A DNA stretch of 64,000 nucleotides from an uncultured Smithella sp. (lineage in GTDB: Bacteria > Desulfobacterota > Syntrophia > Syntrophales > Smithellaceae): the NCBI GenBank assembly GCA_964469905.1, contig CAYXZW010000001.1, forward strand, positions 134,783 through 198,782, read 5' to 3'. Both the position numbers and the translations under genes were made by a program. Below, piece after piece: positions 14,788 to 61,847 of the stretch (the stretch's first letter is position 1; every line of letters starts with the position of its first letter). The notes below the pieces were generated by a model. It was not told the DNA's origin and did not search any database. It saw only the letters and a program-made list of their open reading frames with translations.

Positions 14788-14796
14788 ATTTCTTCC

Positions 14797-16233: not shown

Positions 16234-16239
16234 TGATGT

Positions 16240-17736
16240 TTAATCTTTCGTTTTATATAACTGAGCGACGGTGCGGTTATCGTTGCTAAAATAAAGATTA
16301 ACCGCGTTCGAAATATCCTTTTGCGAAACCTGATCAAGAACATTTATATAATTAGCAAAATATTTGTAATCACCTAACAGCACTTCATAATAAGATAAAA
16401 TTGATGCTATTTCGGCATTGGAATCAAGGCTCTTAATATATCCCATTCTTAGATGGTTCTTTGCTTTGGTGAGTTCGGCTGCAGATACCGGCTCAGTTTT
16501 TATTTTTTCAATTTCACGGAAAATGACCTCTTCGATTTGAGAATTGGTATGAGGGAAGCGCGGCTGGGCTGATATGACAAACATATTAGGATATCTGGTT
16601 CCCGGAGTGCCATTGGAGGCATTGACGCTCTTGGCAATTCCCATTTCCGTCACCAGCAAGTTGTACAACCGGCTGGTGCGGCCTTTCGTCAGGATTGTTT
16701 CCAGAACATCGAGCACATAGTCGTCATAAGCGGGTGCTGTAGGTTTGTGATAGCCGATAAGCAACATCGGATTAGCATCAAAATTAACAGTTACTCTTCT
16801 TTCTTCTGTTTGTTTAGGTTCTAAATGTATTACAGAGGGCTCATGCTTCGTTGCGGGAATGTCACCAAAATATTTTTCTATAACTTTTAATGTATCGTTT
16901 GTTTTGATATCACCGACAACTGCAATCACAATGCCTTCCGGTGCTTTGTATTTTTGAAATATCTTCTTTACAGAGCTTGGCTTCAGATTAATCATGTCTT
17001 GGGTCCATCCCAGGATCGGCCTGCGATAAGGATGACTCCTATAAGCCGTAGCGAAGAATTGTTCATATAATTTTCCTTGTGGATCGGTTTCTATTCTCTG
17101 GCGCCTCTCTTCCATAATTACATCTCGTTCGGTATAAAATTCGCGGAACACCGGGTTCATCAAGCGATCGGATTCAATTCGGGCCCAGAGTTCAATTTTA
17201 TTGGCAGGAAGGCTGACCTGATATGTAGTTACATCCTGACCAGTCGAAGCATTCATATCCAGGCCGCCGTTTTCAGTGTAGAGCCGGTCTATTTCATTAG
17301 GGATAAGAAAATTTTTCTGACGCTTTTGCAGATTGTTTAACTTTGCAGTGAGCTTTTGAATGCGCTGTTGATCAGCCTTTTGTCCCCGACGTTTTTCTTC
17401 ATCCAGAGCATTGCCTGTCTTCTCTATTGCCGTTAGTATCTTTTTTTCGTGCGCGTAATTTTTTGTTCCGAGAGTTGTGGTGCCCTTGAACATCATATGT
17501 TCCAGAAAATGGGCGGCGCCACTCTCGCCATCAGCTTCATCAACAGCACCGACACGATGACGGATGTAAAGAGAAACAGTAGGGCTTGCATTTCTCTCCA
17601 GCATCAGGACAGTCAGTCCATTATTTAGTTTTGTTTTGATAACTTTCTTTTCCAGATCAAAGCCGTAAGAATTGCCGGCAATAATAAAGAAGAATAAAAA
17701 AGTAAAAATTAATTTAAGAAATTTATTCTCTTTCAT
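16240..17736 (-). CDS. M16 family zinc peptidase (catalytic subunit, HxxEH)
   Basis: 498 aa with a signal peptide (LIFTFLFFFIIAGNSYG) and the inverted zincin motif HFLEHMMFKG. Confidence 0.85.
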   Translation of the reverse strand: MKENKFLKLIFTFLFFFIIAGNSYGFDLEKKVIKTKLNNGLTVLMLERNASPTVSLYIRHRVGAVDEADGESGAAHFLEHMMFKGTTTLGTKNYAHEKKILTAIEKTGNALDEEKRRGQKADQQRIQKLTAKLNNLQKRQKNFLIPNEIDRLYTENGGLDMNASTGQDVTTYQVSLPANKIELWARIESDRLMNPVFREFYTERDVIMEERRQRIETDPQGKLYEQFFATAYRSHPYRRPILGWTQDMINLKPSSVKKIFQKYKAPEGIVIAVVGDIKTNDTLKVIEKYFGDIPATKHEPSVIHLEPKQTEERRVTVNFDANPMLLIGYHKPTAPAYDDYVLDVLETILTKGRTSRLYNLLVTEMGIAKSVNASNGTPGTRYPNMFVISAQPRFPHTNSQIEEVIFREIEKIKTEPVSAAELTKAKNHLRMGYIKSLDSNAEIASILSYYEVLLGDYKYFANYINVLDQVSQKDISNAVNLYFSNDNRTVAQLYKTKD

Positions 17737-38978: not shown

Positions 38979-40172
38979 TTATGTATGGAAAATTGCATCA
39001 GTGACAGCCGCAATTTTTTTCATTTCGACGACATCATGGACTCGAACAATATGACAGCCATTCATTATTGATGCAACAACTGTAGCCGCCGTACCTTCTA
39101 TCCTCTGTTTAGGTTCTTCGCCTGTAATTTTACCAATAAACGCTTTACGGGATGTTCCGATCATTATCGGCAAACCCAGTGTTTTCAATTCACCAAGGTT
39201 GTTGATGATCCTGTAATTATCTTCCAAAATTTTTCCGAAGCCGATGCCCGGATCGAGAACTAAAGATTGTTTTTCAATCCCTGCAATCATAGCTTTTTCG
39301 ATACTTTTTCTCAGATAATCTATTATTTCCCCCATCAAATTGCTGTATTTTAAATCTCCCTTTTGCATGGTTTGCGGCTTACCGCGCATATGCATAAGAA
39401 TCATCGCAGCCCGGCCTTCGCTGACAGCAGGCATCATCTTCTTATCTTTATGGCCGGCGCTTATATCATTCACTATTTCCGCGCCCGCGGCAATTGCTTC
39501 TCTGGCAACGGCAGCTTTGGTAGTGTCAATAGAAATTGGTGTCTTGGACTGTCGGGAAATCTCTTTGATTACAGTGATGACTCTTTTTAATTCTTCCTTT
39601 ACAGAAACTGGTGCGGCACCAGGCCGAGATGATTCTCCGCCGATATCGATGATATCTGCTCCCTGGGCGATCATCTGCAATCCATGATCTACTGCTTTAT
39701 GCTGATTATAATAAAGGTCGCCATCAGAAAAAGAATCAGGAGTCACATTCAGGATACCCATTATCTGTGTTTTGTGCCCTAATGGAATTTCCCGGTGTGA
39801 TGTCTTTAAAATAAATTTTGTTTGCTGCGCATTCATCAGGACTTCCAGGAGCTCCTGCGAAATCTGATTTAGCCCAAAAGGTTGTCTGGCGAGTTTTCCG
39901 GCCAGCGCCATAATCTGCTTAATCGTCCCCATAATTAAAACATCGGTCGAAGCAACACTGTTTCCGACACTTCCCCGCGCTACAGCTGCATCTCCACCAA
40001 CTGATAACATTTCCTGCTTGATGATATTTCCTATCCTGCATGATTTGTTTTCCAGTAAGATATTGATATGAATAGTTTTTGGCAGCATAGCGTCAACACC
40101 ATAGGGATCAACGCCGATTTTTTTCATAATCGCTGTTGCTTGAGCTGAATCTCTAATACTAATGATTTTCAC
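38979..40172 (-). CDS. folP: Dihydropteroate synthase with a ~130-aa N-terminal extension
   Basis: The C-terminal 265 aa are a pterin-binding domain (IMGILNVTPDSFSDG...IIDIGGESSRPGA...VNDISAG...DPGIGFGK). The N-terminal 130 aa form an additional domain. Confidence 0.85.
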   Translation of the reverse strand: MKIISIRDSAQATAIMKKIGVDPYGVDAMLPKTIHINILLENKSCRIGNIIKQEMLSVGGDAAVARGSVGNSVASTDVLIMGTIKQIMALAGKLARQPFGLNQISQELLEVLMNAQQTKFILKTSHREIPLGHKTQIMGILNVTPDSFSDGDLYYNQHKAVDHGLQMIAQGADIIDIGGESSRPGAAPVSVKEELKRVITVIKEISRQSKTPISIDTTKAAVAREAIAAGAEIVNDISAGHKDKKMMPAVSEGRAAMILMHMRGKPQTMQKGDLKYSNLMGEIIDYLRKSIEKAMIAGIEKQSLVLDPGIGFGKILEDNYRIINNLGELKTLGLPIMIGTSRKAFIGKITGEEPKQRIEGTAATVVASIMNGCHIVRVHDVVEMKKIAAVTDAIFHT

Positions 40173-40227
40173 ACGGATATCTCAAATTTAATTTATTCAG
40201 AGATAAATCTGCCACAGAATTAAATTA

Positions 40228-42057
40228 CTATGAAACGCTTTTGAAATCCTCTACTGGCGGCTGTTTGGGTAAAGCATCACCGATCAGGGCATCGATTTCC
40301 GCCCCGTTTAACACTTCCTTCTCCAGAAGTTCATTAGCTATTTTGTGCAGTATATCAATATTTCCATTTAATAGTTCTTTTGCTTTCTCATAATTACCCA
40401 TTACTAAGGTCTGAACTTCGATGTCGATAGTTCTTGCAGTTTCTTCGCTGTAATCCTTATGGGTTGCAAATTCCCTACCCAGGAATATTTGTTCTTCTTT
40501 TTTTCCATAGCTTAAAGGCCCCAACTTCTTGCTCATTCCCCATTCACAAACCATTTTTCGGGCAAGATTGGTCGCCCGCTCTATATCATTGCCCGCACCT
40601 GTTGTGAAATCATGCAGGACTATTTCTTCCGCAGCCCGCCCGCCTAAAAGGATTGTGATGTTATTGTCTAAATATTGTCGGGGATAAGTATGCTTTTCGT
40701 CTATAGGCAATTGCTGGGTTAAGCCCAAAGCTCTTCCTCTTGGTATAATCGTCACTTTATGAATAGGATCGGTGCCCAGCATCAAACGGGCAACCAGAGC
40801 GTGTCCAGTTTCATGGTAAGCCGTATTGCGCTTTTCCAGATCACTTATGACCATAGTCCTTCTTTCGGTACCCATTAATATTTTATCTTTAGCAAATTCA
40901 AAATCGCTCATATTGACTTTGTCTTTATTTACACGGGCAGCACAAAGAACAGCTTCATTAACCAGATTTTCAATATCTGCTCCTGATGTTCCGGGTGTTC
41001 CTCTGGCCAGCACGGCAAAATCAACATCCTCGGCAATGGGAGCTTTACGCGAATGCACCTCAAAAATCATTTCCCGCCCTTTAACATCCGGCAGAGGTAC
41101 AATGACCTGGCGATCAAACCTTCCGGGGCGCAAAAGCGCAGGATCAAGAACATCGGGACGGTTTGTCGCCGAAATGAGGATCACTCCTTCATTGGATTCA
41201 AATCCATCCATTTCCACCAGTAATTGATTGAGTGTTTGTTCTCTTTCATCATGGCCGCCGCCTAAGCCCGCTCCGCGATGCCGGCCTACTGCATCTATTT
41301 CATCGATAAAAATAATGCAGGGCGCATTTTTTTTTGCCTGGCCAAATAAGTCGCGGACACGCGATGCTCCAACACCGACAAACATTTCCACAAAATCAGA
41401 ACCGCTGATACTCAAAAAGGGGACATCAGCTTCGCCGGCAATTGCACGTGCCAGAAGAGTTTTACCGGTTCCTGGAGGACCGACCAGCAATAAACCTTTG
41501 GGAATTCTTCCACCGAGTTTAGTGTATTTTTTGGGATCTTTTAAAAAATCAATAACTTCTTCCAATTCGGCCTTCGCTTCATCGATACCGGCAACATCGG
41601 CAAAAGTTACTTTTTTTGATTTATCAGTAATTAAACGTGCCCTGCTTTTTCCGAAAGCCATTGCTTTACCGCCACCGGACTGCATCTGACGCATAAAGAA
41701 AATCCAGACACCGATAAGTAAAAGCATCGGAAACCAGGAAACGAGAAGAGTCATGTACCAGGGAGATTCTTCCGGCGGCCTGGCTGTAATTTTTACGCCT
41801 TTTTCCCGAAACTGGGTGACAACTTTATCATCTTTGGGTGCATATGTTTTAAAAATGTTACCATTGGTCAATTTTCCGGTTATGTTTTCACCTTGTATTG
41901 TTACTTCGCTGATCTCATTTTTTTCCAGAGATAACAGCATTTCACTATAGATTATATCCTTTTGCGAATTTTTAGGCTGATTAAAAAGCTGCCAGACCAG
42001 TAAAAATACCAGTAGGACAGTTAGTGCAAGAGCGATGTTTTTTTGAAGCTGGTTCAA
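40228..42057 (-). CDS. ftsH: ATP-dependent zinc metalloprotease FtsH
   Basis: 609 aa with two TMs, an AAA module ([20 protein letters not shown]) and the HEXXH motif in [10 protein letters not shown]. Confidence 0.95.
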
Positions 42058-42115
42058 GATTATTCTCCTTAAAGTGATTACGTTAAAAAACCTTTATAAT
42101 AATATCTAATTAATC

Positions 42116-43489
42116 TCAAATAATTTCTAGCTCCAGCACATTTTTTGTTTCCGGGGTAATTTTCACCTGTTCGTTCATATGCATATTTTCTATCCAGATT
42201 ACCGCTTGCTGATCCACCACTAACATAATTTCACCCCGTTTTTGTTGAGTAATTTTATGATCAATAAAGAATGACTTAAGCTTTTTCCTTCCGGCCATAC
42301 CCAGCGGCTGAAACCAGTCCCCTTCCCTGCGATTTCGCAAAACCAGGGGAAAATGAATTTTATCCAGATCGAAATAATCTTTATTCTTCAAGGTGAAATC
42401 AATCTTATTTTTTTTCACTAACTGGAAACGGACGTTTAAATTTCTTTGTGCAAGATATACCGTGCCCGGGATTTCAACCGGATATAGATATTCCATCTGT
42501 TTTTTGCCTTCTTTGGTTCTCTCCAGAATTATATTTTCATATTCGCGTCTTGCTTCAATTCCAAAAGGAAGACTCAGTTTTTTTCCTGATTCCAGTTTAT
42601 GTAAAAGTTTGCTCAGAGAGTTGACATGTAAAAATGTGATTCCATTTTTCTGTGAACTGAAATTTTCCAGAAGCTCTTTTAGTAACCTGCGTTGAATAGC
42701 CAGCGGCAACATGCATATATACTCTATGTTTAATATAATTTTATTTTTCTGCTTTTTGATACAGGTTGTCTTTAATGCACTATTAACACTTTCCCTGATG
42801 AACTTATTCTCCTCACGCAGAATTTCAGCCATCTGTGCCAGGGCTTCATCAATTTTCGGATTATATTCATTTTTTAAATAGGGCAGAAGCTCCAGACGAA
42901 TTTTATTACGCAGATGAATGTTACTTTCATTCGAGCTGTCCTGACGAAAAGCAATGCCTGATTTATTAAGGAAATGAATTATCTCGTCGCGTGATACATC
43001 AATCAGTGGACGGATATATTTACCGTCACGCAGAGGCGTAATTCCTTTGAGTCCCTCTAAACCGCTGCCTCTCAACAGATGGAGTAATACGGTTTCCGCC
43101 TGATCCTGTAAATTATGTCCCAGGGCAATCTTGCAGGCATGATTACTTTTAGCCACTTCGTCAAAAAACTGATATCTCTGACGGCGGTAAAAATCTTCCG
43201 GGGAAAGCCCCTGCGGCACTGCTGTGTTCTCCATTTTTCGGGAAACAAAAAGCAAGCCTAATTTTTTTGCCAACCTGCTGGCCGAACGTTCGTCTTCATT
43301 AGCTTCGCGGCCCCGCAATCCGTGATTAAAATGAGCAACTACAACTTTTAGACCCATTGATGGAGCTATTTGTGCAAGGGTTACGGTGAGCGCAACAGAA
43401 TCAGGACCGCCGGAGAGTCCTATTACAACTCGCTCGTTTTGTTTTAATAAGTCGTGTTTGATTATAGTTTGTTTTACTTTTTCAATCAT
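42116..43489 (-). CDS. tilS: tRNA(Ile)-lysidine synthase
   Basis: PP-loop SGGPDSVAL and a TilS C-terminal domain. I prefer ATG 43489 (MIEKVK), 2 nt after the upstream TGA. The track start at 43495 is TTG. Confidence 0.85.
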   Translation of the reverse strand: MIEKVKQTIIKHDLLKQNERVVIGLSGGPDSVALTVTLAQIAPSMGLKVVVAHFNHGLRGREANEDERSASRLAKKLGLLFVSRKMENTAVPQGLSPEDFYRRQRYQFFDEVAKSNHACKIALGHNLQDQAETVLLHLLRGSGLEGLKGITPLRDGKYIRPLIDVSRDEIIHFLNKSGIAFRQDSSNESNIHLRNKIRLELLPYLKNEYNPKIDEALAQMAEILREENKFIRESVNSALKTTCIKKQKNKIILNIEYICMLPLAIQRRLLKELLENFSSQKNGITFLHVNSLSKLLHKLESGKKLSLPFGIEARREYENIILERTKEGKKQMEYLYPVEIPGTVYLAQRNLNVRFQLVKKNKIDFTLKNKDYFDLDKIHFPLVLRNRREGDWFQPLGMAGRKKLKSFFIDHKITQQKRGEIMLVVDQQAVIWIENMHMNEQVKITPETKNVLELEII

Positions 43490-43491
43490 AA

Positions 43492-44136
43492 TCAATAAAA
43501 TATTGAACTAATCTCTGAAAGGTTTTCACAATAATAATCTGCAGACGCTGCCAATAAAATTTCTCGCCTTGTCAGGCCATTTAAATACGCGCAACTCAAT
43601 ATTCCTGAGTATTTAGCCAACGTAATATCGTTTATGCCATCACCAACGATAACCGTTTTTCCTTTTTCCATGCCGTATTTCTCTAACAAATAATCCACTA
43701 AACGCTTATCGGGTTTCTTATAGGGTAGTGTACCATCTCCCACTATTTCCACAAAATACTTTTCTATGCCTAAACCCTTACTGATGGCCTGTGTGAAATC
43801 ATACCTCTTATTGGTGAGAATGACCTTCTTTTTATTTTGAAAATATTGCAACAGATCTTCTGCTCCTGGATGTAGCGTAGTATTATCAAGTAGATGTTCG
43901 CTATAGTAGCCGCTGAATATTTTAATCGCCTCCTGATAAAAATGAAGATGATCGGCCCCTAGTGCTCTTTCAATTAATTTTCTTACACCATCGCCGACAA
44001 AGGATATTATTTCTTCTTCCTTTTTGACCCTGAAACCAAACTGTTCCAATGTGTAATTAACTGCAGCGACCAGATCAGTGCCTGTAGAAACCAGTGTGCC
44101 ATCGAAATCAAATATCACGAAATCAATTTCTTTCAT
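43492..44136 (-). CDS. HAD-superfamily phosphatase (phosphoglycolate phosphatase-like)
   Basis: Has the DxDGT motif in FDFDGTLV, plus TNK and GDGINDI. I prefer the start at MKEIDFVIFDFDGT (44136, GGGAGA upstream). An alternative ATG is at 44154. Confidence 0.75.
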   Translation of the reverse strand: MKEIDFVIFDFDGTLVSTGTDLVAAVNYTLEQFGFRVKKEEEIISFVGDGVRKLIERALGADHLHFYQEAIKIFSGYYSEHLLDNTTLHPGAEDLLQYFQNKKKVILTNKRYDFTQAISKGLGIEKYFVEIVGDGTLPYKKPDKRLVDYLLEKYGMEKGKTVIVGDGINDITLAKYSGILSCAYLNGLTRREILLAASADYYCENLSEISSIFY

Positions 44137-44397
44137 CACATCTCCCGTCTCCATTATATCGCCAAGTAATTACTAAATACAAGGCCGTTTATTCTAATGA
44201 AACATACGATTAGACTTTATGGAAATAAACCGTCTGAATATCCGGACAACGTCAAGCCTTTATGGAATAAACTTGTAAGTGATTGGAATATTATGGTAGA
44301 AGATCCTTACACCATAATTAGAATGCGGCTTCCAGATGTGCCGTTGACCGTGCCCCCAGCTTAAAGCAATGATCTCTTAATAGAGGAATTATTCAAA

Positions 44398-46260
44398 ATG
44401 ATTGCCCTACCCGGTTATCAAATCAATCAACTTCTTTATGAGGACAGTACAAGGTTAGTATATCGGGCAACGCGCACTCACGATGATGCGGGCGTCATCA
44501 TCAAGACACTAAGCAAGGAATATCCTTCACCGGTAGATCTGGCAGAATGCAGAAAGGAATATGAAATAACTTCCTCTCTGCAAGGTGAAGGAATTATCCG
44601 GGCTTACGGTCTGGAAAAATTTGATAATCGTCAGGCTTTAATTCTGGAGGATATTGGCGGGGAATCACTGGACAGGCTGCTTGCCGCGCGCCAACTTAAT
44701 CTGCAGGAAGCACTGACACTGGCCATAAAAATTGCAGACATCATCGCGTTGATTCACGAACAGAGAGTAATTCATAGGGATATAAATCCATCAAATATTA
44801 TTTATAATCCGGAGACCGGCCAGGTCCGTATATTTGATTTCAGTCTTTCCACTAAACTATCCAGGGAAAATGTAGAAATCAGCAATCCCGATATGCTGGA
44901 AGGCACATTAGCATATATTTCTCCCGAACAAACAGGACGGATGAACAGGGCCGTTGATTACCGCACTGACATTTATTCTTTCGGTGTGACTTTGTATATG
45001 ATGCTGACAGGTTCTTTGCCTTTTACAGCGAATGATCCGATGGAGCTTATTCATGCCCATATTGCCAGACAACCGCGAGTGCCTCAGGAAATAAATCCAA
45101 TAATCCCGCCTGTTCTTACAAATGTTGTTTTAAAGCTGCTGTCCAAGATGGCCGAAGACCGTTACCAGAGCGCGTCCGGACTTAAATACGATCTGATGAA
45201 TTGCCAGGAACAATTAAACACTGCGGGTACGATAGCGTCATTTGAATTAGGCAGACATGATTTTTCCGACAGATTGCAGATATCCCAAAAACTTTATGGC
45301 CGACAAGCCCAGATAGAAATCTTACTTAAATCATTCGATTCTGTTTGTGACGGTAAGACAGAGTTGCTGCTTGTATCAGGTTATTCCGGTATCGGCAAGA
45401 CGGCGCTCATCAATGAGATCCACAAAAGGATTTCCGGCAAACAGAGTTATTTTATATCAGGCAAGTTCGATCAATATAAACGCGACCTGCCCTATTCCGC
45501 GCTCACTCAGGCGCTGGTTGATTTAATGAGACAGTTGCTGTCCGAGAAAGACGAAACCCTGGAGTTATGGCAGGCCGGTTTCCTGGGTGCATTAGGTACG
45601 AATGCCCGGCTGATGGTAGATATTGTGCCCAATCTGGAGCTGATTATTGGCCGGCAACCGGACGTTCCGGAACTTTCTGCTGAAGAAAGCAAAAATCGTT
45701 TTAATATTGTCTTTCATAATTTTATTAATGTTATTGCCACACGTGACCATCCCCTTGTTATATTTATTGATGACCTGCAATGGGCGGATTCCGCCACACT
45801 GAAACTTTTGGAAATGCTGCTCAGGAATCCGGCAGCGGGACATTTACTTTTTATCGGCGCCTATCGGAATAACGAAGTCACAGACATTCACCCACTGATG
45901 CTGACGGTGGAAGAAATCAGACAATCCGGCGCTACGGTCAACCCGATAGTCCTGAACCCGCTCACCACGGAATATATAGAACAACTGATTGGAGAGACGC
46001 TGAACTGCGATCGGGAAAAGGCACAACCGCTTGCCCTGCTTATTTTCAAAAAAACCGGTGGCAATCCATTCTTTATTAATGAATTCCTGAAGAAGCTTTA
46101 CCGGGATGAAATGATTCTTTTTGATCAAAAACAAGAGGGCTGGATATGGGATGCAAATAGCATTCAACAGATCGATATAACTGATAATGTGGTTTCGTTA
46201 ATAACTGAAAAGATAAATAAACTCCCTTCAAAAGTTCAAAGCACCCTCATGATCGCTTAG
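44398..46260 (+). CDS. N-terminal part of a giant multi-kinase: Ser/Thr protein kinase domain plus AAA_16-type ATPase, ending at an in-frame TAG
   Basis: Kinase motifs are VIIK, HRDINPSNII, DFS and SPEQTGR. P-loop is GYSGIGKTAL and Walker B is FIDDLQWAD. The ORF ends at TAG 46258-46260 but continues in the same frame (see next feature). Confidence 0.85.
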   Translation: MIALPGYQINQLLYEDSTRLVYRATRTHDDAGVIIKTLSKEYPSPVDLAECRKEYEITSSLQGEGIIRAYGLEKFDNRQALILEDIGGESLDRLLAARQLNLQEALTLAIKIADIIALIHEQRVIHRDINPSNIIYNPETGQVRIFDFSLSTKLSRENVEISNPDMLEGTLAYISPEQTGRMNRAVDYRTDIYSFGVTLYMMLTGSLPFTANDPMELIHAHIARQPRVPQEINPIIPPVLTNVVLKLLSKMAEDRYQSASGLKYDLMNCQEQLNTAGTIASFELGRHDFSDRLQISQKLYGRQAQIEILLKSFDSVCDGKTELLLVSGYSGIGKTALINEIHKRISGKQSYFISGKFDQYKRDLPYSALTQALVDLMRQLLSEKDETLELWQAGFLGALGTNARLMVDIVPNLELIIGRQPDVPELSAEESKNRFNIVFHNFINVIATRDHPLVIFIDDLQWADSATLKLLEMLLRNPAAGHLLFIGAYRNNEVTDIHPLMLTVEEIRQSGATVNPIVLNPLTTEYIEQLIGETLNCDREKAQPLALLIFKKTGGNPFFINEFLKKLYRDEMILFDQKQEGWIWDANSIQQIDITDNVVSLITEKINKLPSKVQSTLMIA

Positions 46261-51561
<5,301 letters not shown>

Positions 51562-51576
51562 AAGTGGGGGTGAAAA

Positions 51577-52230
51577 ATGCCGGAGCAGATTCAGAAACAG
51601 ACAGTTCTTATTGTCGATGATGATATTGTTAATATTAAAATACTTGGTTCAGCACTAATATCAGATTATGAAATCCTTTTTGCACTGAGTGCACAAGAAG
51701 GAATTAATAGTGCAATTTCCAATCAACCCGACATTATTCTACTTGACATTTTGATGCCGTTTATGGATGGATATGAGGCCTGCCGAAAATTAAAAGATGA
51801 TGAACGAACCAGGGACATCCCGGTAATCTTCATCACGGCAAAAGACTCTGAAGAAGATGAAGCGAAGGGATTTGATGCCGGCGCTGTTGATTATATTACT
51901 AAACCATTCAGTCTGATTGTTGCAAAGGCAAGGATAAGGACACATATCTCTCTTAATCTTACGAGTCAGGAGTTGGCAAGTAAGAATGTCATGCTTGCCG
52001 CCCGCTTAGAGGAACTGGAGAATGCCCGAAAAGAGATTAAGGACATTGAATCAATTATTCCTATCTGCTCCTATTGCAAAAAGATCCGCGACGATAAAAA
52101 TTACTGGGAACAACTGGAAAGCTATATGTATAAATATTCAGAAATGAAGTTCAGCCACAGCATCTGTCCGGATTGTTATGAAATGCACATCATACCTCAA
52201 TTGTTGCCTGATCGTGTCAAAGGGAAATGA
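51577..52230 (+). CDS. Response regulator: REC, coiled-coil linker, Cys-rich C-terminal domain (CxxC...HxxCxxC), paralog 1
   Basis: 217 aa with an intact REC (IVDDD, LLDILMP, FITAK, ITKPF). The C-terminus is IIPICSYCKKIRDDKNYWEQLESYMYKYSEMKFSHSICPDCYE. GGGGGTG RBS lies 15 nt after the giant kinase stop. Confidence 0.85.
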   Translation: MPEQIQKQTVLIVDDDIVNIKILGSALISDYEILFALSAQEGINSAISNQPDIILLDILMPFMDGYEACRKLKDDERTRDIPVIFITAKDSEEDEAKGFDAGAVDYITKPFSLIVAKARIRTHISLNLTSQELASKNVMLAARLEELENARKEIKDIESIIPICSYCKKIRDDKNYWEQLESYMYKYSEMKFSHSICPDCYEMHIIPQLLPDRVKGK

Positions 52231-52292
52231 ATTAAAACATATGGAATGATTTTAATAACATCGGCTCAAGAAGCAATAAGGAATGACAAACT

Positions 52293-52946
52293 ATGGTTGA
52301 GGATATCCCAACACAAGTGATTCTAATAATAGATGATGCCATTGCCGACATTAAGATTCTTGGATCCACATTACAGTCTAATTATAAAATACTATTTGCC
52401 CTCAATGCCCAGGAAGGAATTACCAGTGCAATTGCCAATCAACCCGATCTTATCCTTCTGGACATAATTATGCCGGGGATGGACGGATATGAGGCCTGCC
52501 GTCAATTACAAACCGATGAAAGAACCAGACACATCCCGATCATCTTTATTACCGCCAAAACCGCTGAGGAAGATGAGATAAAGGGCTTTGCCCTGGGAGC
52601 GTTGGACTATATAACCAAGCCTTTTAACCCCATTATTGTAAAAGCTCGAGTGCGTACTCATATATCGCTCAGACTTGCCACCCTTGATTTGGCAAGAAAG
52701 AATATCATGCTTGCCGCTCGTGTAGAAGAACTGGAGAAAGCCAGAAACGAGATCAAGGCCATTGAGTCAATTATTCCTATCTGTTCATATTGCAAAAAGA
52801 TTCGTGACGATAAAAATTACTGGGATCAGTTGGAAAGCTATCTGCGCAGAAATACGGAACTTAAGTTCAGTCATAGCGTTTGTCCGAGTTGTTACGAACA
52901 GCACGTCATACCTCAAATTTCACCTGTTGTTGGTAAAGAAAAGTAG
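52293..52946 (+). CDS. Response regulator: REC, coiled-coil linker, Cys-rich C-terminal domain, paralog 2
   Basis: 217 aa, colinear with paralog 1 over its full length. The C-terminus is IIPICSYCKKIRDDKNYWDQLESYLRRNTELKFSHSVCPSCYE. AAGGAA RBS is present. Confidence 0.85.
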   Translation: MVEDIPTQVILIIDDAIADIKILGSTLQSNYKILFALNAQEGITSAIANQPDLILLDIIMPGMDGYEACRQLQTDERTRHIPIIFITAKTAEEDEIKGFALGALDYITKPFNPIIVKARVRTHISLRLATLDLARKNIMLAARVEELEKARNEIKAIESIIPICSYCKKIRDDKNYWDQLESYLRRNTELKFSHSVCPSCYEQHVIPQISPVVGKEK

Positions 52947-53006
52947 CAGGTTCAATAATCATGAGTATTGACGGAGACATCACCATTAAACACCTATCAT
53001 ATTCCC

Positions 53007-53036
53007 TTGACAAGGCCTGATTTACCTTCCTATACT
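53007..53036 (+). promoter_or_regulatory. Near-consensus sigma70-type promoter inside the track ORF's 5' extension
   Basis: TTGACA (53007-53012), an 18-nt spacer, then TATACT (53031-53036), 37 nt upstream of ATG 53073. Confidence 0.4.
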
Positions 53037-53072
53037 CCAAAAGTACGAAATCGATTGGAGAAGTTACGGCAA

Positions 53073-54917
53073 ATGACTCATAAACACTCTCTTACGAAAT
53101 ATGTCAGCGAGCACTTGGTAGTAGGCGACGGCGCAATGGCCAGTTGGCTTTACCAGAAAGGCATACCCATTGGCTTGTGCTGCGAGGAATTGAACATCTC
53201 CCGACCGGATATCATCCGGGATACCCATCGGGAATACTACGAAGCCGGTGCCCGCCTGATTGAGACCAATACCTTCGGGGCCAACCGTGACGCCCTGTCC
53301 CGTCACGGCCTGGAAGACAGTGTTTACCGCATTAACTGGAAAGCGGCGAATCTGGCCCGGGAAGCGGTAGGCGCAGATGCCTGGGTGATGGGCAGTATGA
53401 CAGCCATCAGCACCGGAAGAGTCCGTCATGAACTTCTGCCGGGACACCGCGAAATGTTCATTGAACAGGCTGAAGCATTGCTCGCCGGGGGTGTCGATGG
53501 TTTAATTCTGGAAACTTTCCTCGATCTGGCAGAACTTCTCCTTGCCCTGACTACCCTGCGCTCCCTCACGAATTTACCGATCATTGCTCAACTGGCTTGT
53601 ATGGAGGTGGGAAAAACCCGTGACGGCTATACAGTCACAGAATCTTTTCGGCAGCTCCTGGATTCCGGGGCAGATATTCTGGGTATCAACTGCCGTCTTG
53701 GTCCCGGCGAAATATTGCGCACAATGGAACAGACTTACGTTCCGGAAGGTACGATTCTTTCCGTTTTTCCCAACGCCGGTCGCCTGGGTATAATAGAAGG
53801 GGAATTCGGCTATACTTCATCGCCCGAATACTTCGCCGATCGCGCTTTGAGTTTCCGCGATCAAGGGGTCAGGATCATCGGCGGCTGTTGCGGCACAACA
53901 CCAGACCATATCCGCGCCGTAGCCTCCACTTTGAGGGAATTGCCTCCCCTGCCCCGTATTAATCCTGAGCATATTCAGGAGCCAGCGCAGATATCAATAA
54001 TGACTGATGTCAGTGTAAGAGGAAAAACAGACACAATTCTGGATAAGGTAAAACGACGTTCAACGGTGCTGGTCGAATTCGACCCGCCGAAAGACCTCGA
54101 CATCGAACAATACATGATTGGTGCAGCCTCTCTGCAGGATGCGGGGGCTGATGCCATCACCATGGCTGATAACTCACTGGCCCAGACGAGGATGAGTAAT
54201 CTGGCCCTGGGAGCCATCGTAAAAATGCGCCTCGGAATCGATCCCCTCGTCCACATCGCCTGCCGGGACCGCAACTTAATTGGCCAGCAGTCCCATCTCA
54301 TGGGACTGCATGCTCTGGGCATTCATAATATCCTTGTTGTCACGGGTGACCCCGCTCGCATCGGCGATCTCCCCGGCGCCAGTTCGGTCTTTGACGTCTC
54401 GTCCTTTGACCTTATCCGCATGGTTAAACAGCTCAATTGCGGCATCTCTTTCTCCGGTCAGTCTCTCCGGGAACATGGACGTTTCGTAGTCGGGGCTGCC
54501 TTCAATCCTCACGTTAACAATTTGGATAATGCTTTAAAACGACTGGAAAGAAAAATAGAGGCGGGTGCAGATTTTATTTTGACTCAACCTGTTTACGATC
54601 AGGCGACAATCGAGATGCTTGCCACAAAGACCCAAAATCTTCCCGTACCAATCTTCATTGGCATTATGCCCATCACCAGCGCCCGCAACGCCGTATTTCT
54701 CCACAACGAAGTGCCTGGAATCAGACTCTCGGAAGAATCTTTGAAACGAATGGCCCAATATCCTGTAGCCGGCCCTGAAGCCAGGAGAGCCGGTCTGGAA
54801 ATTGCCAGGGAACTGGTGGATGTTGCCCGGGTTTACTTCCCGGGACTTTATTTGATGACCCCCTTTGCCTATTACGATATGACTGCAGAGTTGACCAGGT
54901 ACGCCAAGAATAAGTAA
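53073..54917 (+). CDS. Bifunctional homocysteine S-methyltransferase / 5,10-methylenetetrahydrofolate reductase (YitJ-like fusion)
   Basis: The N-terminal Hcy-binding domain has [19 protein letters not shown] and the Zn site [11 protein letters not shown]. The C-terminal MTHFR domain has [21 protein letters not shown] and LTQPVYD. I prefer ATG 53073 over TTG 52968 because of the internal promoter. Confidence 0.85.
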
Positions 54918-55089
54918 CGGAGCACTTATTTGCTGTCCGGTAATTGTAATGAAGTTTGACCAGCACACAACTCCATCGTCTTCAATTATTGTTTGACTAT
55001 ATCCATCGCTTATGCTATCGATTGGCACCGCTTGGATCACTTTATTAGACTGAGACGGCATGTAAAGTTTATTCACCTGTCTTGACCAA

Positions 55090-55120
55090 GGTCTTCCGCG
55101 TGCGGGAGACCTTTTTATTT
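55090..55120 (+). terminator. Strong rho-independent terminator (or attenuator) abutting the next start codon
   Basis: GGTCTTCCG-CGTG-CGGGAGACC forms a 9-bp stem including one G-U pair (55090-55111), followed by TTTTTATTTT. It lies 172 nt after the yitJ-like stop and 9 nt before ATG 55129. Confidence 0.7.
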
Positions 55121-55128
55121 TGGGGACT

Positions 55129-56031
55129 ATGAAAAATAAAACATCTTATAAATTTGCCATTATCGGCCTGGGTATGGTGGGAACGGCTGTAGGTCATTTA
55201 CTGAAGAAATCCGGCCACGAGATAATCGCTATTTCGGACAAATCCGCTGCTGCCCTGAAGAATGCCCTGCCCTACACCGGAGGGACAGCTTTTCGTGATC
55301 CTAAAAAAGCTGCATTGGATGCTGATTGCATTTTGATTACTACTCCTGATGATAATATTCGAAGTGCCTGTATTGAAATTGCGGATTCTGAACTTCTAAA
55401 AAATAAATTTGTTTTTCATATGAGCGGCGCCGGAGGCCTTGATCTTCTGGATTCGGCTAAAGAAGCCGGCGCTGTTATCGCCAGTATTCATCCTGTGCAA
55501 AGTTTTTCTTCAATCGACACCGCCATTAATAGCATTCCCGGCAGCATTTTTGGCATAACAGCTGATAAAAGAGCAAGAAAGCTCTCTGAAATAATTGTCC
55601 TTGATCTCAGGGGTATTCCAATATTCATTAAACCTGCGCAGAAGCCTCTCTACCATGCTGCGGCTTGTATTGCTTCCAATTATCTGGTTTCATTATTGAG
55701 CATTGTCGAGTCCACCTATGAGTCCATCGGCATAAGTAATACAAATGCCCGCAAAGCATATTTACCTTTGATTTACGGTACGCTGAACAATGTCGAAAAA
55801 TCGGGTTTGATTTCAGCTCTCACCGGTCCGATCGCCCGTGGTGATGCCGGTACGGTAAAAAAACATATTGAAGCAATGGATAATACACAACCGCAGTATT
55901 CTGCTCTCTACGCATCACTGGGACTTATTGCAGTGGGGATTGCCCAACAAAAAGGTACATTGTCCTCGAAGCAGGCAAAAACAATTAATGATCTTTTGAA
56001 AGGAGTTCATGAAGATGAGTACTCAAAATAA
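55129..56031 (+). CDS. Rossmann-fold plus DUF2520 domain oxidoreductase
   Basis: Has the dinucleotide-binding motif [12 protein letters not shown]. The C-terminal [12 protein letters not shown]...LTGPIARGD is the DUF2520 signature as I recall it. Its 3' end overlaps panB by 23 nt. Confidence 0.7.
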
Positions 56032-56833
56032 AAGCAGCCGTAAAACTATTCTGGATATTAAGAAAATGAAAGCGCTTGGTGAAAAAATTACCGTACTTAC
56101 CGCCTACGATTATGCCATTTCTTCCATTCTGGACGAATGCGGTGTTGATATGATCCTCGTGGGAGATTCACTGGGCATGGTTGTTTTAGGATATGACACC
56201 ACTCTCCCGGTCACGATGGAAGATATGCTGCACCACACAAAAGCAGTTTCCCGGGCAGCACACAATTCGCTGGTCATTGCCGATATGCCTTTTCTTTCCT
56301 ATCAAGTCTCACCCCAGTTGGCATTAGCTAATGCCGGCCGTTTTCTGCAAGAAGCTGGAGCGCAAGCGGTCAAACTGGAAGGCGGCAGGGAAACTGCTGA
56401 AACTGTTCGCAAAATAACTTCCGCCGGGATTCCCGTTATGGCGCATGTCGGTTTGACACCCCAGTCGATTCACCAAATCGGCGGATTTAAAGTCCAAGGA
56501 AAAAAAGAAGATGCGGCCCTGCGAATAATTGAAGATGCCAAAATACTGGAGGAAGCCGGTGCTTTTTCGATTGTTCTGGAATTAGTACCGGAAAAACTAG
56601 CTGAAGAAATAACCAAAACAATTGGCATTCCCACAATTGGCATTGGCGGTGGAGTGCACTGCGACGGCCAGGTGCTGGTAATAAATGATATGTTGGGACT
56701 GTATGACAAATTCACACCAAAGCATGTAAAAAAATACGCCAACTTAAATCCGGAGATTAAAAAAGCGGTCAAAAGTTACATAACCGATGTGAAAAATTGT
56801 ACTTTCCCGGATGCTGAACATAGCTTTAAATAG
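56009..56833 (+). CDS. panB: 3-methyl-2-oxobutanoate hydroxymethyltransferase
   Basis: 274 aa. [24 protein letters not shown] and GHVGLTPQS are canonical PanB motifs. Confidence 0.9.
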
Positions 56834-56887
56834 CTGATAGATTATAAATTGGTTTTGTTCGATACATTCGTCAGTATCTGAAATTAT

Positions 56888-56928
56888 AAATCCCGGGATT
56901 CATTCCAATAAGAAACGAATTCCGGGAT
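56888..56928. terminator. Hairpin between convergent panB and the PPIase gene (possible bidirectional terminator)
   Basis: AATCCCGG (56888-56895) pairs with CCGGGATT (56921-56928), and inner ATTC/GAAT pairs extend the stem. Both flanks are A/T-rich. Confidence 0.4.
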
Positions 56929-56975
56929 TATTATTGTAATCAACAGTATTTAGTTTAGACTAACCAGCGATATAA

Positions 56976-58046
56976 TTATTTTTCAAAAACCATAATTTTC
57001 GCATTATCGCGCAATTTCTTCAATAAAGTGTTGAATGCTTCTGTTTGCTTTTGCTGTTCCAGGTAAGATGATATTTTCCCTTTAACTTCTTCCAGCTCCA
57101 CTGTCTTCTGGGGATTGCGCGCCAATACCTGGATTATATGATAACCGTATTCTGTAGCAACTACAGGCCCAACGGCATTAATTTCCTGGGAAAAAGCCGC
57201 ATCTTCAAAAGGCTTCACTGTTTGGTCTTTTCTTATCTGACCGAGGTCGCCGCCATTATCTTTACTGGGGCAATCGGAATTTTTACGAGCAATTTCGCCA
57301 AAATCGGCACCTTCAACTATTTGCTTCCGTAAACCATCTATCTTTAACTTTTTTTCTGCTTTGACGTTATCATTATCTTCTTTGGCAAATGCGGTCAGTA
57401 TGTGGCGGACATGAACATTCTCCGGAATAAGAAATTGATCCTTATTTTCATCATAGAATTTACTGATCTCTTTTGGCGAAGGTTTTCCCTTGCTACCCAA
57501 TTCCTGAGCCACCATTTTTTTTACTTTAATCCCCAGTGCGATATGTTCCCTGGTAATTTTATTGTCTTTCATAAATTTATCCAGTTTCTGATCCGGCGGA
57601 AGACTGGCTTTAATTTGATCCATTATCATTGCTATTTCTTTATCAGTTGCCGGAATTTTTCTTTTTTCCACTTCGTTCGCCAGAAGAGTACGCATGACGA
57701 ATTCATCAATGATCTGTTTCTTCAGAGTCGTCCGCGCTTCTTTCATTTTATCAGCCGGAATCTGACCTTTATACGCAGCAAGTCTCTGTTTGATATCTCC
57801 ATCCATTTGCGCTTTCTTTAAGATACTACCATCAACATTCACGGCAATATCGGTTGATTCGGCATTGGTAGATGCTGCCGGCGGTGCAGCGCTGGCCACT
57901 GGAACTAACGGTTGAACTTGATTAGTGCTTACTGCCGGACTTTGAGCATTCTTCTTTTTCTCTTCCGTGTTACCGCAACCCGTCATAATAGCAAATGTGG
58001 CTACAAGAAATATTATCGACCACTTCTTATTAATCCTGCTTTTCAT
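56976..58046 (-). CDS. Parvulin-type peptidyl-prolyl isomerase lipoprotein (SurA/PrsA-like)
   Basis: 356 aa with lipobox FAIMTGC, SurA-N-like helices and a PpiC domain (VRHILT...GGDLG...GYHIIQV). Confidence 0.8.
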   Translation of the reverse strand: MKSRINKKWSIIFLVATFAIMTGCGNTEEKKKNAQSPAVSTNQVQPLVPVASAAPPAASTNAESTDIAVNVDGSILKKAQMDGDIKQRLAAYKGQIPADKMKEARTTLKKQIIDEFVMRTLLANEVEKRKIPATDKEIAMIMDQIKASLPPDQKLDKFMKDNKITREHIALGIKVKKMVAQELGSKGKPSPKEISKFYDENKDQFLIPENVHVRHILTAFAKEDNDNVKAEKKLKIDGLRKQIVEGADFGEIARKNSDCPSKDNGGDLGQIRKDQTVKPFEDAAFSQEINAVGPVVATEYGYHIIQVLARNPQKTVELEEVKGKISSYLEQQKQTEAFNTLLKKLRDNAKIMVFEK

Positions 58047-58159
58047 TAAAATCCTCCAGAAAGTTGTTAGTCAGCACTGTGTTTTACTATCCGCGAGATA
58101 TATTCAATATACCCATATACGTCAAGAAGATAATCATATCTAAGATATGCTTAATTCAT

Positions 58160-59512
58160 TTAAGTAAATTGTCGCAAATATTGGACGATTTCCTGCTGCT
58201 GAGCTAATTCCGGATGATTGGTTGCCAGAATACATGCGGGAATAGCCATTTGCTGCATCTGCAAGATATCCTTTAAAGCGGCAAACATATTGACGGGAGG
58301 ATAAAATTCTCTGGACAAATAGTTAATCAGCTTTAATGTTTTAAAACCGTCAAACCAGCAGTGAAACTGTTTAATCAATCCAGTTTCATCTTTAACGTTT
58401 CGGCGAATTTTCGTCCACGTCTGCACAAAGGAGCAATCTTTCAAAAAAGATGCCAACAGAGGATGAATTAATCCGGCATTATTCAAGATATCTTTGGTAT
58501 CATAATGGAAAGGCTTTTCCATAAGCAGCAGCCAATTAGCCAATATTTGAAATATCATTGGATCATACAAAACGTATTCTTCCTGCTCGTGCGTCAGAAA
58601 TCTTTGTATTCTTTTGCCTGTGCCAAAGGGAACGCGCTGAGATGGCCGTGCTGATGGAAAGACACATGTATTTTTAACATAGTTTATCTTTCCGACTTTA
58701 GCCAGTTTGTTAAGAAAATAAAAGTCCTCACCTGCTTCCCGCCGGTTCATTCCCCGAACATCCAGATAGGCATCGGCAGAACAAGCCATTGCGGAACCTA
58801 TAGAATGAAAAGCATAGGGAGATTTTGCATATTTCAATCCTAATATCCAGTAACGCAAGAATATTTCATAGCAATAAATAGCCGCTCTTTCTTCATCACT
58901 AATCGGTTCCTGATGCTCGTAAGCAACGACGGCAGTTTTTACTTTACTGGTAAAGTAATCATTTATTACTGCCAAATAATTGTTTTGCACTAATGTATCG
59001 GCGTCAAGACTTAGAATAATCCTTTGGGCAGAAGAGCTCTTTGCCAGCATACTCAGTGCCCAATCCATTCCAATCTTGCGCGCCATTCCCACGCCACCTT
59101 CATCAGCAGATATTTCCTTTCCTTTTGATGAGGCATCTATATATCCGATCCTTAATCCTGAATCGGCAATGAGCTGTAATTTATCTTTCAAATCATAAGT
59201 GAGATTCCACTTTTTCAGGCTGGCTTTATTAACCAATGCTTGAAGATATTCCAGCGTTTGCTGATTATTACTGATTACTTCATCCGGGGAATTATTCTTA
59301 TTATTGATTACGCATAAGACCAATGAATCATCTAAAGACGAAGATGAATTTAGCGCAAGAGATGCCAGGGTGGAAAAAAGCATATTCTTTTCGGCATAAG
59401 CAGGTATTACCACAACCTGAGATATGCTTTCAGTATTCGTCGCAATCAGCTTCCAGCGTCCTGCCACCGAATATTTATCCAGATATTGAATCAATGAAGA
59501 AGATTTAGTCAT
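58160..59512 (-). CDS. GT-A fold (family 2-like) glycosyltransferase, substrate unknown
   Basis: 450 aa. VVVIPAYAEKN is the GT2 N-terminal motif and SLDADTLV is the DxD motif. Its start overlaps the miaA end by 8 nt. Confidence 0.6.
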   Translation of the reverse strand: MTKSSSLIQYLDKYSVAGRWKLIATNTESISQVVVIPAYAEKNMLFSTLASLALNSSSSLDDSLVLCVINNKNNSPDEVISNNQQTLEYLQALVNKASLKKWNLTYDLKDKLQLIADSGLRIGYIDASSKGKEISADEGGVGMARKIGMDWALSMLAKSSSAQRIILSLDADTLVQNNYLAVINDYFTSKVKTAVVAYEHQEPISDEERAAIYCYEIFLRYWILGLKYAKSPYAFHSIGSAMACSADAYLDVRGMNRREAGEDFYFLNKLAKVGKINYVKNTCVFPSARPSQRVPFGTGKRIQRFLTHEQEEYVLYDPMIFQILANWLLLMEKPFHYDTKDILNNAGLIHPLLASFLKDCSFVQTWTKIRRNVKDETGLIKQFHCWFDGFKTLKLINYLSREFYPPVNMFAALKDILQMQQMAIPACILATNHPELAQQQEIVQYLRQFT

Positions 59513-60419
59513 TTAAATATTTCAATACACCTTCTTTAAGTAATGTATAATCATCTCCGTTAATCCAATTAATTTTAATTCCCTTTCTTTCCATACGTCG
59601 AAACCACGTTTCCTGACGTTTGGCAAATTGATGAATGCTGGTATTTAATTGTGCAAACATCTCGGCATAAGTGATTTTCCCTTGCAGATAACGGGAAACA
59701 TAACGATATTCCAACCCGAAGCTATCGAGCCTTGCCCAGGATAATCCGGATATTTCTAATGTCCTTATTTCTTCAATCATTCCCATTTCCAGTCTTTGTG
59801 TTAACCGGTCTGTAATGCGTTGGCGCAGTACTGATCGGTCCCAGCGGACACCGAATACAGCGGCATTCAAATTCGGCACTGCTGATGTTGCTGCAGGCTG
59901 TCGTAATCGCGCTCTTTCTATCTCTATAGCCCGAATCAATCTGTCTTTATCCTCGATGTCCGTCTTATTATGAAGTTGACTTTTCAAGGCGAAAAGATTT
60001 TTTTGTAAATCCTCGATTGATTTAGTTTGCAAATTGTTTCTTAATTCCTGATCCGGTGGCGCCTCGGGTAACTGGTAATTCAGAATAATTGATTCTAAAT
60101 AAAGCCCGGTGCCTCCAACCACTACCGGCAGAACATTTCTTTTTTTAAGATCGGAGTAAACTTCATAAAAACCGGTCTGAAATTCAAAAAGATTAAATTC
60201 TTCTGCCGGACTGATAATATCGATCAAATAATATGGTATCCTGAAGCCATTAATTATATATTCACTTAAATCTTTGCCTGTACCAATATCCAGGCCTTGA
60301 TAAACTTGTCGGGAATCTGCAGAAATTATTTCACCTTTCAGCTCGTAGGCCAGACGAGCAGACAGTTTTGTTTTACCCGACGCAGTCGCTCCCAGAAGAA
60401 TTATGGTTTTTTTAACCAC
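59505..60419 (-). CDS. miaA: tRNA dimethylallyltransferase
   Basis: 304 aa with P-loop GATASGKT, plus SADSRQVYQGLDIGT and VVGGTGLY. Confidence 0.9.
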   Translation of the reverse strand: MVKKTIILLGATASGKTKLSARLAYELKGEIISADSRQVYQGLDIGTGKDLSEYIINGFRIPYYLIDIISPAEEFNLFEFQTGFYEVYSDLKKRNVLPVVVGGTGLYLESIILNYQLPEAPPDQELRNNLQTKSIEDLQKNLFALKSQLHNKTDIEDKDRLIRAIEIERARLRQPAATSAVPNLNAAVFGVRWDRSVLRQRITDRLTQRLEMGMIEEIRTLEISGLSWARLDSFGLEYRYVSRYLQGKITYAEMFAQLNTSIHQFAKRQETWFRRMERKGIKINWINGDDYTLLKEGVLKYLND

Positions 60420-60500
60420 TTTATTGCCTTGAATTTATCTTTTATTAATGAAATGTAATACAATAATTAACTTAATTTTACCATTACCGGCTGAAAATAA

Positions 60501-61847
60501 ATGAACAAACGACTCGATTTGGGCAAGGAAGCAATCTTCCCGTTGATTATTAAGATGAGCTGGCCATCGATGATAGCAATGGTGGCTATGTCCATTTACA
60601 ACTTTATTGATACTTTCTGGCTTTCCAGATTAAGCCCTCAGGCTCTGGCCGCATTGACAATTTGCTTCCCCATTCAAATGATTTTTGCTGCTGTCGGCAT
60701 TGGTACCGGCGTTGGTGCCGGCTCCTTTTCGGCAAGAATGTTTGGCGCGGGTAAATTATTCCAGGCAAAGCAAGCCGCCGGCCATATATTTACCCTTTCC
60801 CTGTTTTTTGGCATCGTAATGATTATTTCCGTCCTGTATTTTCATGACGGGATTCTCCGTATTTTTGGCGCAGATGCCGAAATAATGCCTCTTTGCCGCG
60901 ATTATCTGATTGTTGTCACCTTCAGTTCGCCTTTTCTTTTCTTTTCCATGATGTCCAATAATTTGTTACGCGCCGAGGGAAGACCTCTTTTATCCATGTG
61001 GGTTGTTCTGATTTCTTCAATTCTCAGTGCAATTATCGATCCTTTTTTAATTTTCGGTATAGGACCTTTCCCACGTATGGGCATCAAAGGAGCTGCTCTG
61101 GCAGCAGTTATTGCTCAATTTGCAGCCTGCATCTTCTCCGTCTATTTTATGTTATTAAAAACATCAATTTATGATCTTAAATGGCAATATCTAATACCAA
61201 ACATATCCGTAATTAAATCAATATTTTCTACCGGATTTCCCTCGATTGTCATTAATATGATTGTAAGTATAGTTTTAGTTTTTTACAATCATACGCTATC
61301 TCAGTTCGGTTCACTCGCTATAGCTGCTTTAGGCATCTGCTTTCGAGTAAACGGACTTGTAACAATGATTTTATTTGGAATTGGTTTTGGACTAATGCCT
61401 ATTGTTGGTTACAGCGAAGGAGCTAAACTTTACGGGCGTCTGAAAGAATCTGTCTTCGTGGCGACAAAAGCAGCCATTGTGATTGCTGTAATCGCTACCG
61501 TCTTCCTGGAAATATATGCTGAATCAATAGTCGGTATTTTTTCTAATGATCCGGCGCTCACGGCAATTGCCACAACAGCCTTGAGGCTCTATGTGTCAGT
61601 TTTGATATTTACGGCGCCATCGATAATTTTCATTAACATGTTTATGGGATTGGGAAAGGGAAATCTGGCAATGGTTTTACTTTTCTTCCGCGATGTCCTT
61701 TTACTTATTCCGTTTTTAATTGTTTTTTCTTCTTGGCTTGGTCTTTTTGGCGCCTGGCTGGCCTTACCGATTGCCAACATAATTGCTTTTTTTGCAATTT
61801 TGTACTGGACGAAAAAAGAACTTAACCGGTTTGATATTAAGTCATAA
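60501..61847 (+). CDS. MATE family efflux transporter
   Basis: 448 aa with about 12 TM helices. The N-terminal IIKMSWPSMIAMVAMSIYNFIDTFW is typical of NorM/MATE. Confidence 0.85.
   Translation: MNKRLDLGKEAIFPLIIKMSWPSMIAMVAMSIYNFIDTFWLSRLSPQALAALTICFPIQMIFAAVGIGTGVGAGSFSARMFGAGKLFQAKQAAGHIFTLSLFFGIVMIISVLYFHDGILRIFGADAEIMPLCRDYLIVVTFSSPFLFFSMMSNNLLRAEGRPLLSMWVVLISSILSAIIDPFLIFGIGPFPRMGIKGAALAAVIAQFAACIFSVYFMLLKTSIYDLKWQYLIPNISVIKSIFSTGFPSIVINMIVSIVLVFYNHTLSQFGSLAIAALGICFRVNGLVTMILFGIGFGLMPIVGYSEGAKLYGRLKESVFVATKAAIVIAVIATVFLEIYAESIVGIFSNDPALTAIATTALRLYVSVLIFTAPSIIFINMFMGLGKGNLAMVLLFFRDVLLLIPFLIVFSSWLGLFGAWLALPIANIIAFFAILYWTKKELNRFDIKS

Follow-up and report, generated by a model that had tools for sequence, protein, structure and literature searches.

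A recent nonsense mutation, from TCG to TAG, has very probably cut what was a single dual-kinase gene of about 2,387 residues and, going by its sequence, the locus would now be a pseudogene in the making or a null allele that segregates within the population. As reconstructed here, 44398-51561 would represent one gene coding for a Ser/Thr kinase, an AAA_16 NTPase, a helical/TPR region, GAF and PAS domains and a hybrid histidine kinase with two receivers and an Hpt domain, in which a single C-to-A transversion at 46259 would have turned Ser codon 621 from TCG into TAG in this strain. Translation from the ATG at 44398 is predicted to end after residue 620, yielding at most a kinase and NTPase stub that is cut in a conserved helical arm and is devoid of the sensor and histidine-kinase modules. 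Those modules would be made only through re-initiation, while the full-length protein, and its function with it, would be lost. Positions are those of the window, i.e., the whole 64-kb stretch of DNA that was analysed, and the features of the locus are collected in Table 1. For annotation, the two ORFs should be recorded as a single disrupted gene, be it a pseudogene or a truncated allele, and neither as two proteins nor as a recoding candidate, with the intact 2,389-aa orthologue of HGW-Deltaproteobacteria-10 serving as the reference form. The TCG-to-TAG event as such would be ordinary biology.

Table 1. Coordinates of the interrupted kinase gene, its downstream neighbours and two intact orthologues
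Feature	Position	Strand	Content or source
5' segment, 620 codons	44398..46257	+	Ser/Thr protein kinase (aa 20-259), AAA_16 P-loop NTPase (aa 298-486), start of conserved helical arm
Premature in-frame TAG	46258..46260	+	Derived from Ser TCG via C-to-A at 46259
3' segment, 1,766 codons and natural TAG stop	46261..51561	+	Remainder of helical/TPR region, GAF, PAS, HisKA, HATPase_c, two REC, Hpt; open
Internal ATG, candidate re-initiation site	46366..46368	+	Start used by gene callers; 1,731-aa product
Response regulator gene 1	51577..52230	+	Pfam Response_reg, 2.2e-24; 16 nt past the kinase gene
Response regulator gene 2	52293..52946	+	Pfam Response_reg, 5.6e-24; 71% identical paralogue of gene 1; 732 nt past the kinase stop
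Intact orthologue L163	1865-9034 of PHBM01000062.1		GCA_002840605.1, HGW-Deltaproteobacteria-10
Intact orthologue L162	1914-9083		GCA_017973855.1

Architecture of the frame and position of the stop

The ORF 44398-46260 (620 aa) and the TTG-started ORF 46291-51561 share one frame, and translation of 44398-51561 gives 2,387 sense-or-TAG codons followed by a terminal stop, with one internal stop. The window reads ATC GCT TAG TGT TTT GGC at 46252-46269 on the plus strand, which places the TAG at 46258-46260. This arrangement had been described in an earlier note on the same DNA, the coordinates, frame arithmetic and peptide context of which all proved correct on recheck.

Pfam searches of the upstream part (44398-46257) recover Pkinase (4.3e-35) and AAA_16 (2.6e-45), and the Ser/Thr kinase domain at aa 20-259 possesses HRD and DFS motifs. 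In the downstream segment, a GAF domain (2.2e-13; aa 724-866 of the segment), located between the Ser/Thr kinase and histidine kinase modules, is followed by a PAS domain, by a histidine kinase core with HisKA (1.2e-19), HATPase_c (2.9e-29) and an intact H-box, SHEIRTPMN, and by matches to two receiver domains and an Hpt domain; the catalytic domains downstream of the TAG are all recognisable by Pfam. No specific NCBIfam model was found for the gene; models such as BarA and TorS matched only in part and below the cutoff.

This organization is comparable to that of the cyanobacterial "dual protein kinases", i.e., STK family III, which includes HstK/Alr2258, Pkn40 and Pkn41 of Anabaena PCC 7120 (PMC2176072). 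Like the HstK-type proteins (PMC2176072), the window gene combines an N-terminal STK, a GAF domain and C-terminal HisKA and HATPase_c domains; unlike them, it carries two receiver domains and an Hpt domain in addition, as in hybrid kinases, belongs to an uncultured deltaproteobacterium (a relative of HGW-Deltaproteobacteria-10) and is interrupted by a premature TAG. A dual kinase is expected to have all its modules on a single polypeptide; the TAG breaks this continuity in the window copy, and the 2,389-aa orthologues and 127 homologous loci retain it. The window copy is a disrupted member of the dual protein kinase family, which is already known. Beyond the organism's own clade, most of the nearest homologues are from cyanobacteria, with 40-49% identity in the junction region, and no experimental study of any member of this deltaproteobacterial clade was found in the literature.

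The TAG lies in a conserved segment that follows the KTxGNPFF motif, about 135 residues past the Pfam match to AAA_16, and there is no linker at this point. Alignment of the junction with 18 relatives yields the family consensus LxLAACIGNxFDLxTLA, with the TAG falling on its second A/S. The earlier note had given this motif as L.LAACIGN.F.L..LA, which agrees with the computed form, and its claim that the stop lies inside a conserved segment rather than at a domain boundary is borne out by the alignment, which puts the TAG in the LAACIGN motif. Further, residues 1-620 of an intact homologue (L084:7896-14636; 2,246 aa) align without gaps to the upstream ORF at 57% identity, the TAG is opposite Ser621 of the homologue, and from its residue 622 onward the homologue matches the first post-TAG codon and those after it, again with no gap. 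The ten codons after the TAG match uninterrupted homologues residue for residue (CFGSHFNLSN in L084 and CFGNSFKLSD in the orthologue), and their gapless alignment to L084 implies that this apparent spacer is coding sequence.

Intact orthologues and the ancestral codon

Species-representative genomes and metagenomes were scanned with the junction peptide, and the codon aligned to the TAG was read by tblastn. The resulting column is occupied by Ala in 141 and by Ser in 26 of 167 homologous loci, with Ser present in all of the closest ones. The 438-aa junction region is free of stops in all 167, and in 127 distinct loci the junction lies within an open frame of at least 1,500 aa. These scans returned relatives of at most 61% identity only, exact-peptide patterns being bound to miss an 80% orthologue; they were dropped as a route to the ancestral codon and served the column census alone. 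A protein search spanning the junction likewise gave matches of no more than 766 aa, though members of the family have 1.8-2.4 thousand residues. The best of these (P0001; 78% identity) has Ser at the TAG column, which provides the residue and not the codon.

Protein-search matches were enriched in fragments and partial proteins, which masked the true orthologue. P0001 itself, the identity of which (78%) is close to the 80% that the orthologue shows over its whole length, is a 554-aa fragment encoded on a 2,615-nt contig from sample ERZ1426830; its first residue is an internal Met, and towards the C-terminus it gives way to unrelated sequence, which overlaps a MazE antitoxin gene of the opposite strand. 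P0001 may represent a further disrupted copy or a chimeric contig.

Orthologues were instead located with the neighbouring response regulator (51577-52230) as the query. It is 92% identical to PKN76469.1 of HGW-Deltaproteobacteria-10, and this counterpart sits right after a single 2,389-aa gene in GCA_017973855.1, GCA_002840605.1 and an ENA contig. The 2,389-aa orthologue shows 80% amino-acid and 85% nucleotide identity to the window gene and the same domain order, with the L162 version being 83% identical to the 5' segment and 79% to the 3' segment. A more distant syntenic copy (L168; 2,385 aa, 57% identity) was also recovered, and a further ENA/NCBI contig with a 2,386-aa gene has the same layout. 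The practical lesson is that an orthologue missed both by the protein search and by the pattern-based genome scan was reached only via a short neighbouring gene.

At the site of the stop, the three closest orthologues (L162, L163 and L164) read GCT TCG TGC and L168 reads GCG TCA TGT, as against GCT TAG TGT in the window. The orthologous TCG is one base away from TAG, hence a single C-to-A change accounts for the stop. The check proposed in the earlier note, i.e., an alignment with orthologues to read the residue in this column, gives Ser (TCG/TCA) in the orthologues alongside the Ala or Ser of the 167 loci. The intact syntenic orthologues, together with the 127 homologous loci open across the junction, confirm the single long multi-kinase gene which that note had postulated.

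Synteny 3' of the kinase gene is conserved across three orthologue assemblies, where both response regulators are followed by MTHFR-like, DUF2520, panB, SurA-like, miaA and MatE genes (window 52968-61847). The intact kinase gene of L162-L164 and L168 is followed by the first response regulator in the same place, and the second (52293-52946) likewise keeps its place behind the kinase gene in all orthologues. The regulator at 51577-52230 is a probable operon partner of the kinase gene, and the stop may exert polarity on both downstream regulator genes. Each of these tandem regulators comprises a REC domain and about 100 C-terminal residues without a Pfam match.

Sequencing error, recoding or a functional split

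The earlier note had offered three explanations for the stop, namely a very recent nonsense mutation, a sequencing error and recoding or readthrough. The first is favoured by the orthologous TCG codon, by the reproducibility of the TAG in two runs and by the absence of signs of recoding. For the A at 46259 to be artefactual, the organism would need to have TCG or another sense codon at this site, which is highly improbable. Single-base errors do occur in metagenome-assembled genomes, but consensus-level substitution errors are rare, and site 46259 lies outside any homopolymer. Moreover, separate Logan assemblies of SRR13723396 and SRR13723393 each yielded a contig that encodes the exact 620-aa product; these contigs match the window at 100% identity over 7,872 and 6,941 bases (i.e., 7-8 kb), TAG included. 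The two runs are independent read sets that probably come from the same project as the assembly, and perhaps do not represent independent populations; SRR13723394 and SRR13723397 contain the strain as well. The recurrence of the TAG in the assemblies of two separate runs makes this option of the earlier note unlikely. An exact look-up in a collection of 15 billion proteins did not return the repaired full-length protein with Ser621, which again argues against an error, though it is a weak test and was taken as a weak negative only with regard to an intact allele in the same strain.

The Logan contigs from the two runs break at 49329-49331, where L001 and L002 end and L169 and L171 start. This point corresponds to the HisKA H-box, a motif common to many histidine-kinase genes, so that a branch in the de Bruijn graph probably explains the break. 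A relationship to the TAG was considered and rejected, since the conserved H-box accounts for it.

Programmed decoding of the UAG, whether as pyrrolysine, by a suppressor tRNA or by stimulated readthrough, would restore a full-length protein, but is the least probable of the explanations considered. Some deltaproteobacteria do encode the Pyl system, and the search for decoding genes covered the 64 kb of the window. Within it, no tRNA(CUA) was detected, the tRNAs being tRNA-Val(TAC), tRNA-Asp(GTC) and tRNA-Pro(GGG), and pylSBCD were likewise not found there. Against decoding, none of the relatives shares the TAG, with the orthologues having TCG or TCA and the 167 homologues Ala or Ser. Additionally, TAG behaves as an ordinary stop in the window, terminating 10 of its 44 long ORFs (23%), the kinase gene's own end included, and a scan of the 64 kb revealed only this one pair of long same-frame ORFs joined by a TAG. 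Recoding signals close to the stop were sought and rejected: the fold of the 120 nt 3' of the TAG is weaker than that of shuffled controls (z = +1.39), and Rfam gave no match within 44000-52500. Stop-codon recoding at 46258-46260, as entertained in the earlier note, is not supported on account of this non-conservation, the ordinary usage of TAG in the window and the lack of a structural or Rfam signal.

The remaining alternative is that the gene has been split into two proteins, both partly active: the 620-aa kinase and NTPase protein and a re-initiated histidine kinase of 1,731 aa (from ATG 46366) or 1,756 aa (from TTG 46291). In contrast to the statement in the earlier note that no ATG or Shine-Dalgarno (SD) sequence follows the stop, there is an ATG at 46366, 35 codons on, with an SD-like pairing of -3.4 kcal/mol, which equals the typical value in the window (gene median -3.2); the TTG at 46291 has no such pairing (+0.7 kcal/mol). 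This ATG is also the called gene start in L001, L002 and P0121 (1,731 aa). An SD-based argument against re-initiation was dropped as uninformative, given that SD pairing is weak across the window and that ATG 46366 is average in this regard. A split is also consistent with the recognisable state of all the downstream catalytic domains and with the 1,766 intact downstream codons, which show a dN/dS of 0.27 and no acceleration in rate, but the recency of the event fully accounts for this intactness. Further, the cut is positioned not in a linker but within a conserved helical segment that continues directly from the NTPase. Met 46366 is replaced by Ile or Val in the orthologues, and hence is neither a conserved start nor one that evolved as such. 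Orthologues genuinely divided here, with an independent downstream start, had been set by the earlier note against its own single-gene reading; neither these nor any divided homologue were found, as 0 of the 167 loci are split. On balance, a functional split is unlikely. Slightly less likely still is its selected counterpart, in which the TAG is fixed and a gene fission is in progress, with the stub and a hybrid histidine kinase re-initiated at ATG 46366 both being expressed and under selection. If it were true, this would constitute a natural experiment on the need for the Ser/Thr-kinase/STAND module in cis.

Age of the nonsense mutation and the genomic neighbourhood

Returning to the nonsense mutation, the event would be evolutionarily very recent, because the 1,766 downstream codons still form an open frame in which amino-acid changes are not in excess. 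The kinase gene contains no second stop or frameshift. Of the possible single-base changes in 46261-51558, 4.8% would create a stop, and the absence of a second stop downstream bounds the neutral divergence since the event at less than approximately 0.012 substitutions per site (95%; if the downstream part evolves neutrally and with indels ignored). Compared with the divergence from the orthologue (dS 0.34-0.42), this bound amounts to a few per cent.

No decay or relaxation of selection was detectable by dN/dS, by the relative-rate test or in near-invariant columns. For the part upstream of the TAG, dN/dS relative to the orthologue is 0.26 (dS 0.34), and for the downstream part it is 0.27 (dS 0.42). 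In a Tajima relative-rate test with L168 as the outgroup, 117 amino-acid changes are unique to the window and 122 to the orthologue, the counts downstream of the stop being 92 and 90. Near-invariant columns of the family are violated at 11 of 232 positions in the window protein and at 12 of 232 in the intact L084. The DFG-to-DFS change in the kinase domain was examined as a sign of decay and rejected, as it is also present in the intact orthologue and in 11 of 128 family members. This absence of decay is equally what is expected if both halves still function, and it leaves the loss of function as a prediction. In these respects the window gene resembles young bacterial nonsense pseudogenes, with one disabling substitution, an otherwise intact frame, constraint that is not measurably relaxed and an intact orthologue in a close relative; nothing sets it apart from others of that kind, and it is conspicuous only by its 7.2-kb length.

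Gene order relative to the orthologues is retained downstream of the kinase gene up to about 61.8 kb, but not upstream (window 38979-44154 versus L162:1-1879 and L168:1-2480). In the window, the upstream genes encode a HAD hydrolase, TilS, FtsH and a pterin-binding enzyme on the opposite strand, whereas in the orthologues the kinase gene is preceded by a patatin-like gene or by two radical-SAM genes; specifically, the intact orthologues in HGW-Deltaproteobacteria-10 and GCA_017973855.1 have the patatin-like gene in place of HAD/TilS/FtsH. A rearrangement breakpoint is located just 5' of the kinase gene. The G+C content is 0.44-0.47 in 44001-56000, compared with 0.38-0.41 in most of the window, and this region spans the kinase gene, the two response regulators and a homocysteine S-methyltransferase/MTHFR fusion gene.

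Elsewhere in the window, the minus strand of 13546-17736 displays three successive same-frame ORFs (498, 478 and 413 aa), each with its own ATG and separated by TAA stops and a few bases; these look like a run of paralogous genes and not like an interrupted gene. The product of a Lon protease gene (257-2665) shares a 90%-identity cluster with PKN77514.1 of HGW-Deltaproteobacteria-10, and it is on this match that the placement of the organism is based. The genes for tRNA-Val(TAC) and tRNA-Asp(GTC) occur in tandem at 2733-2921, just past the Lon gene.
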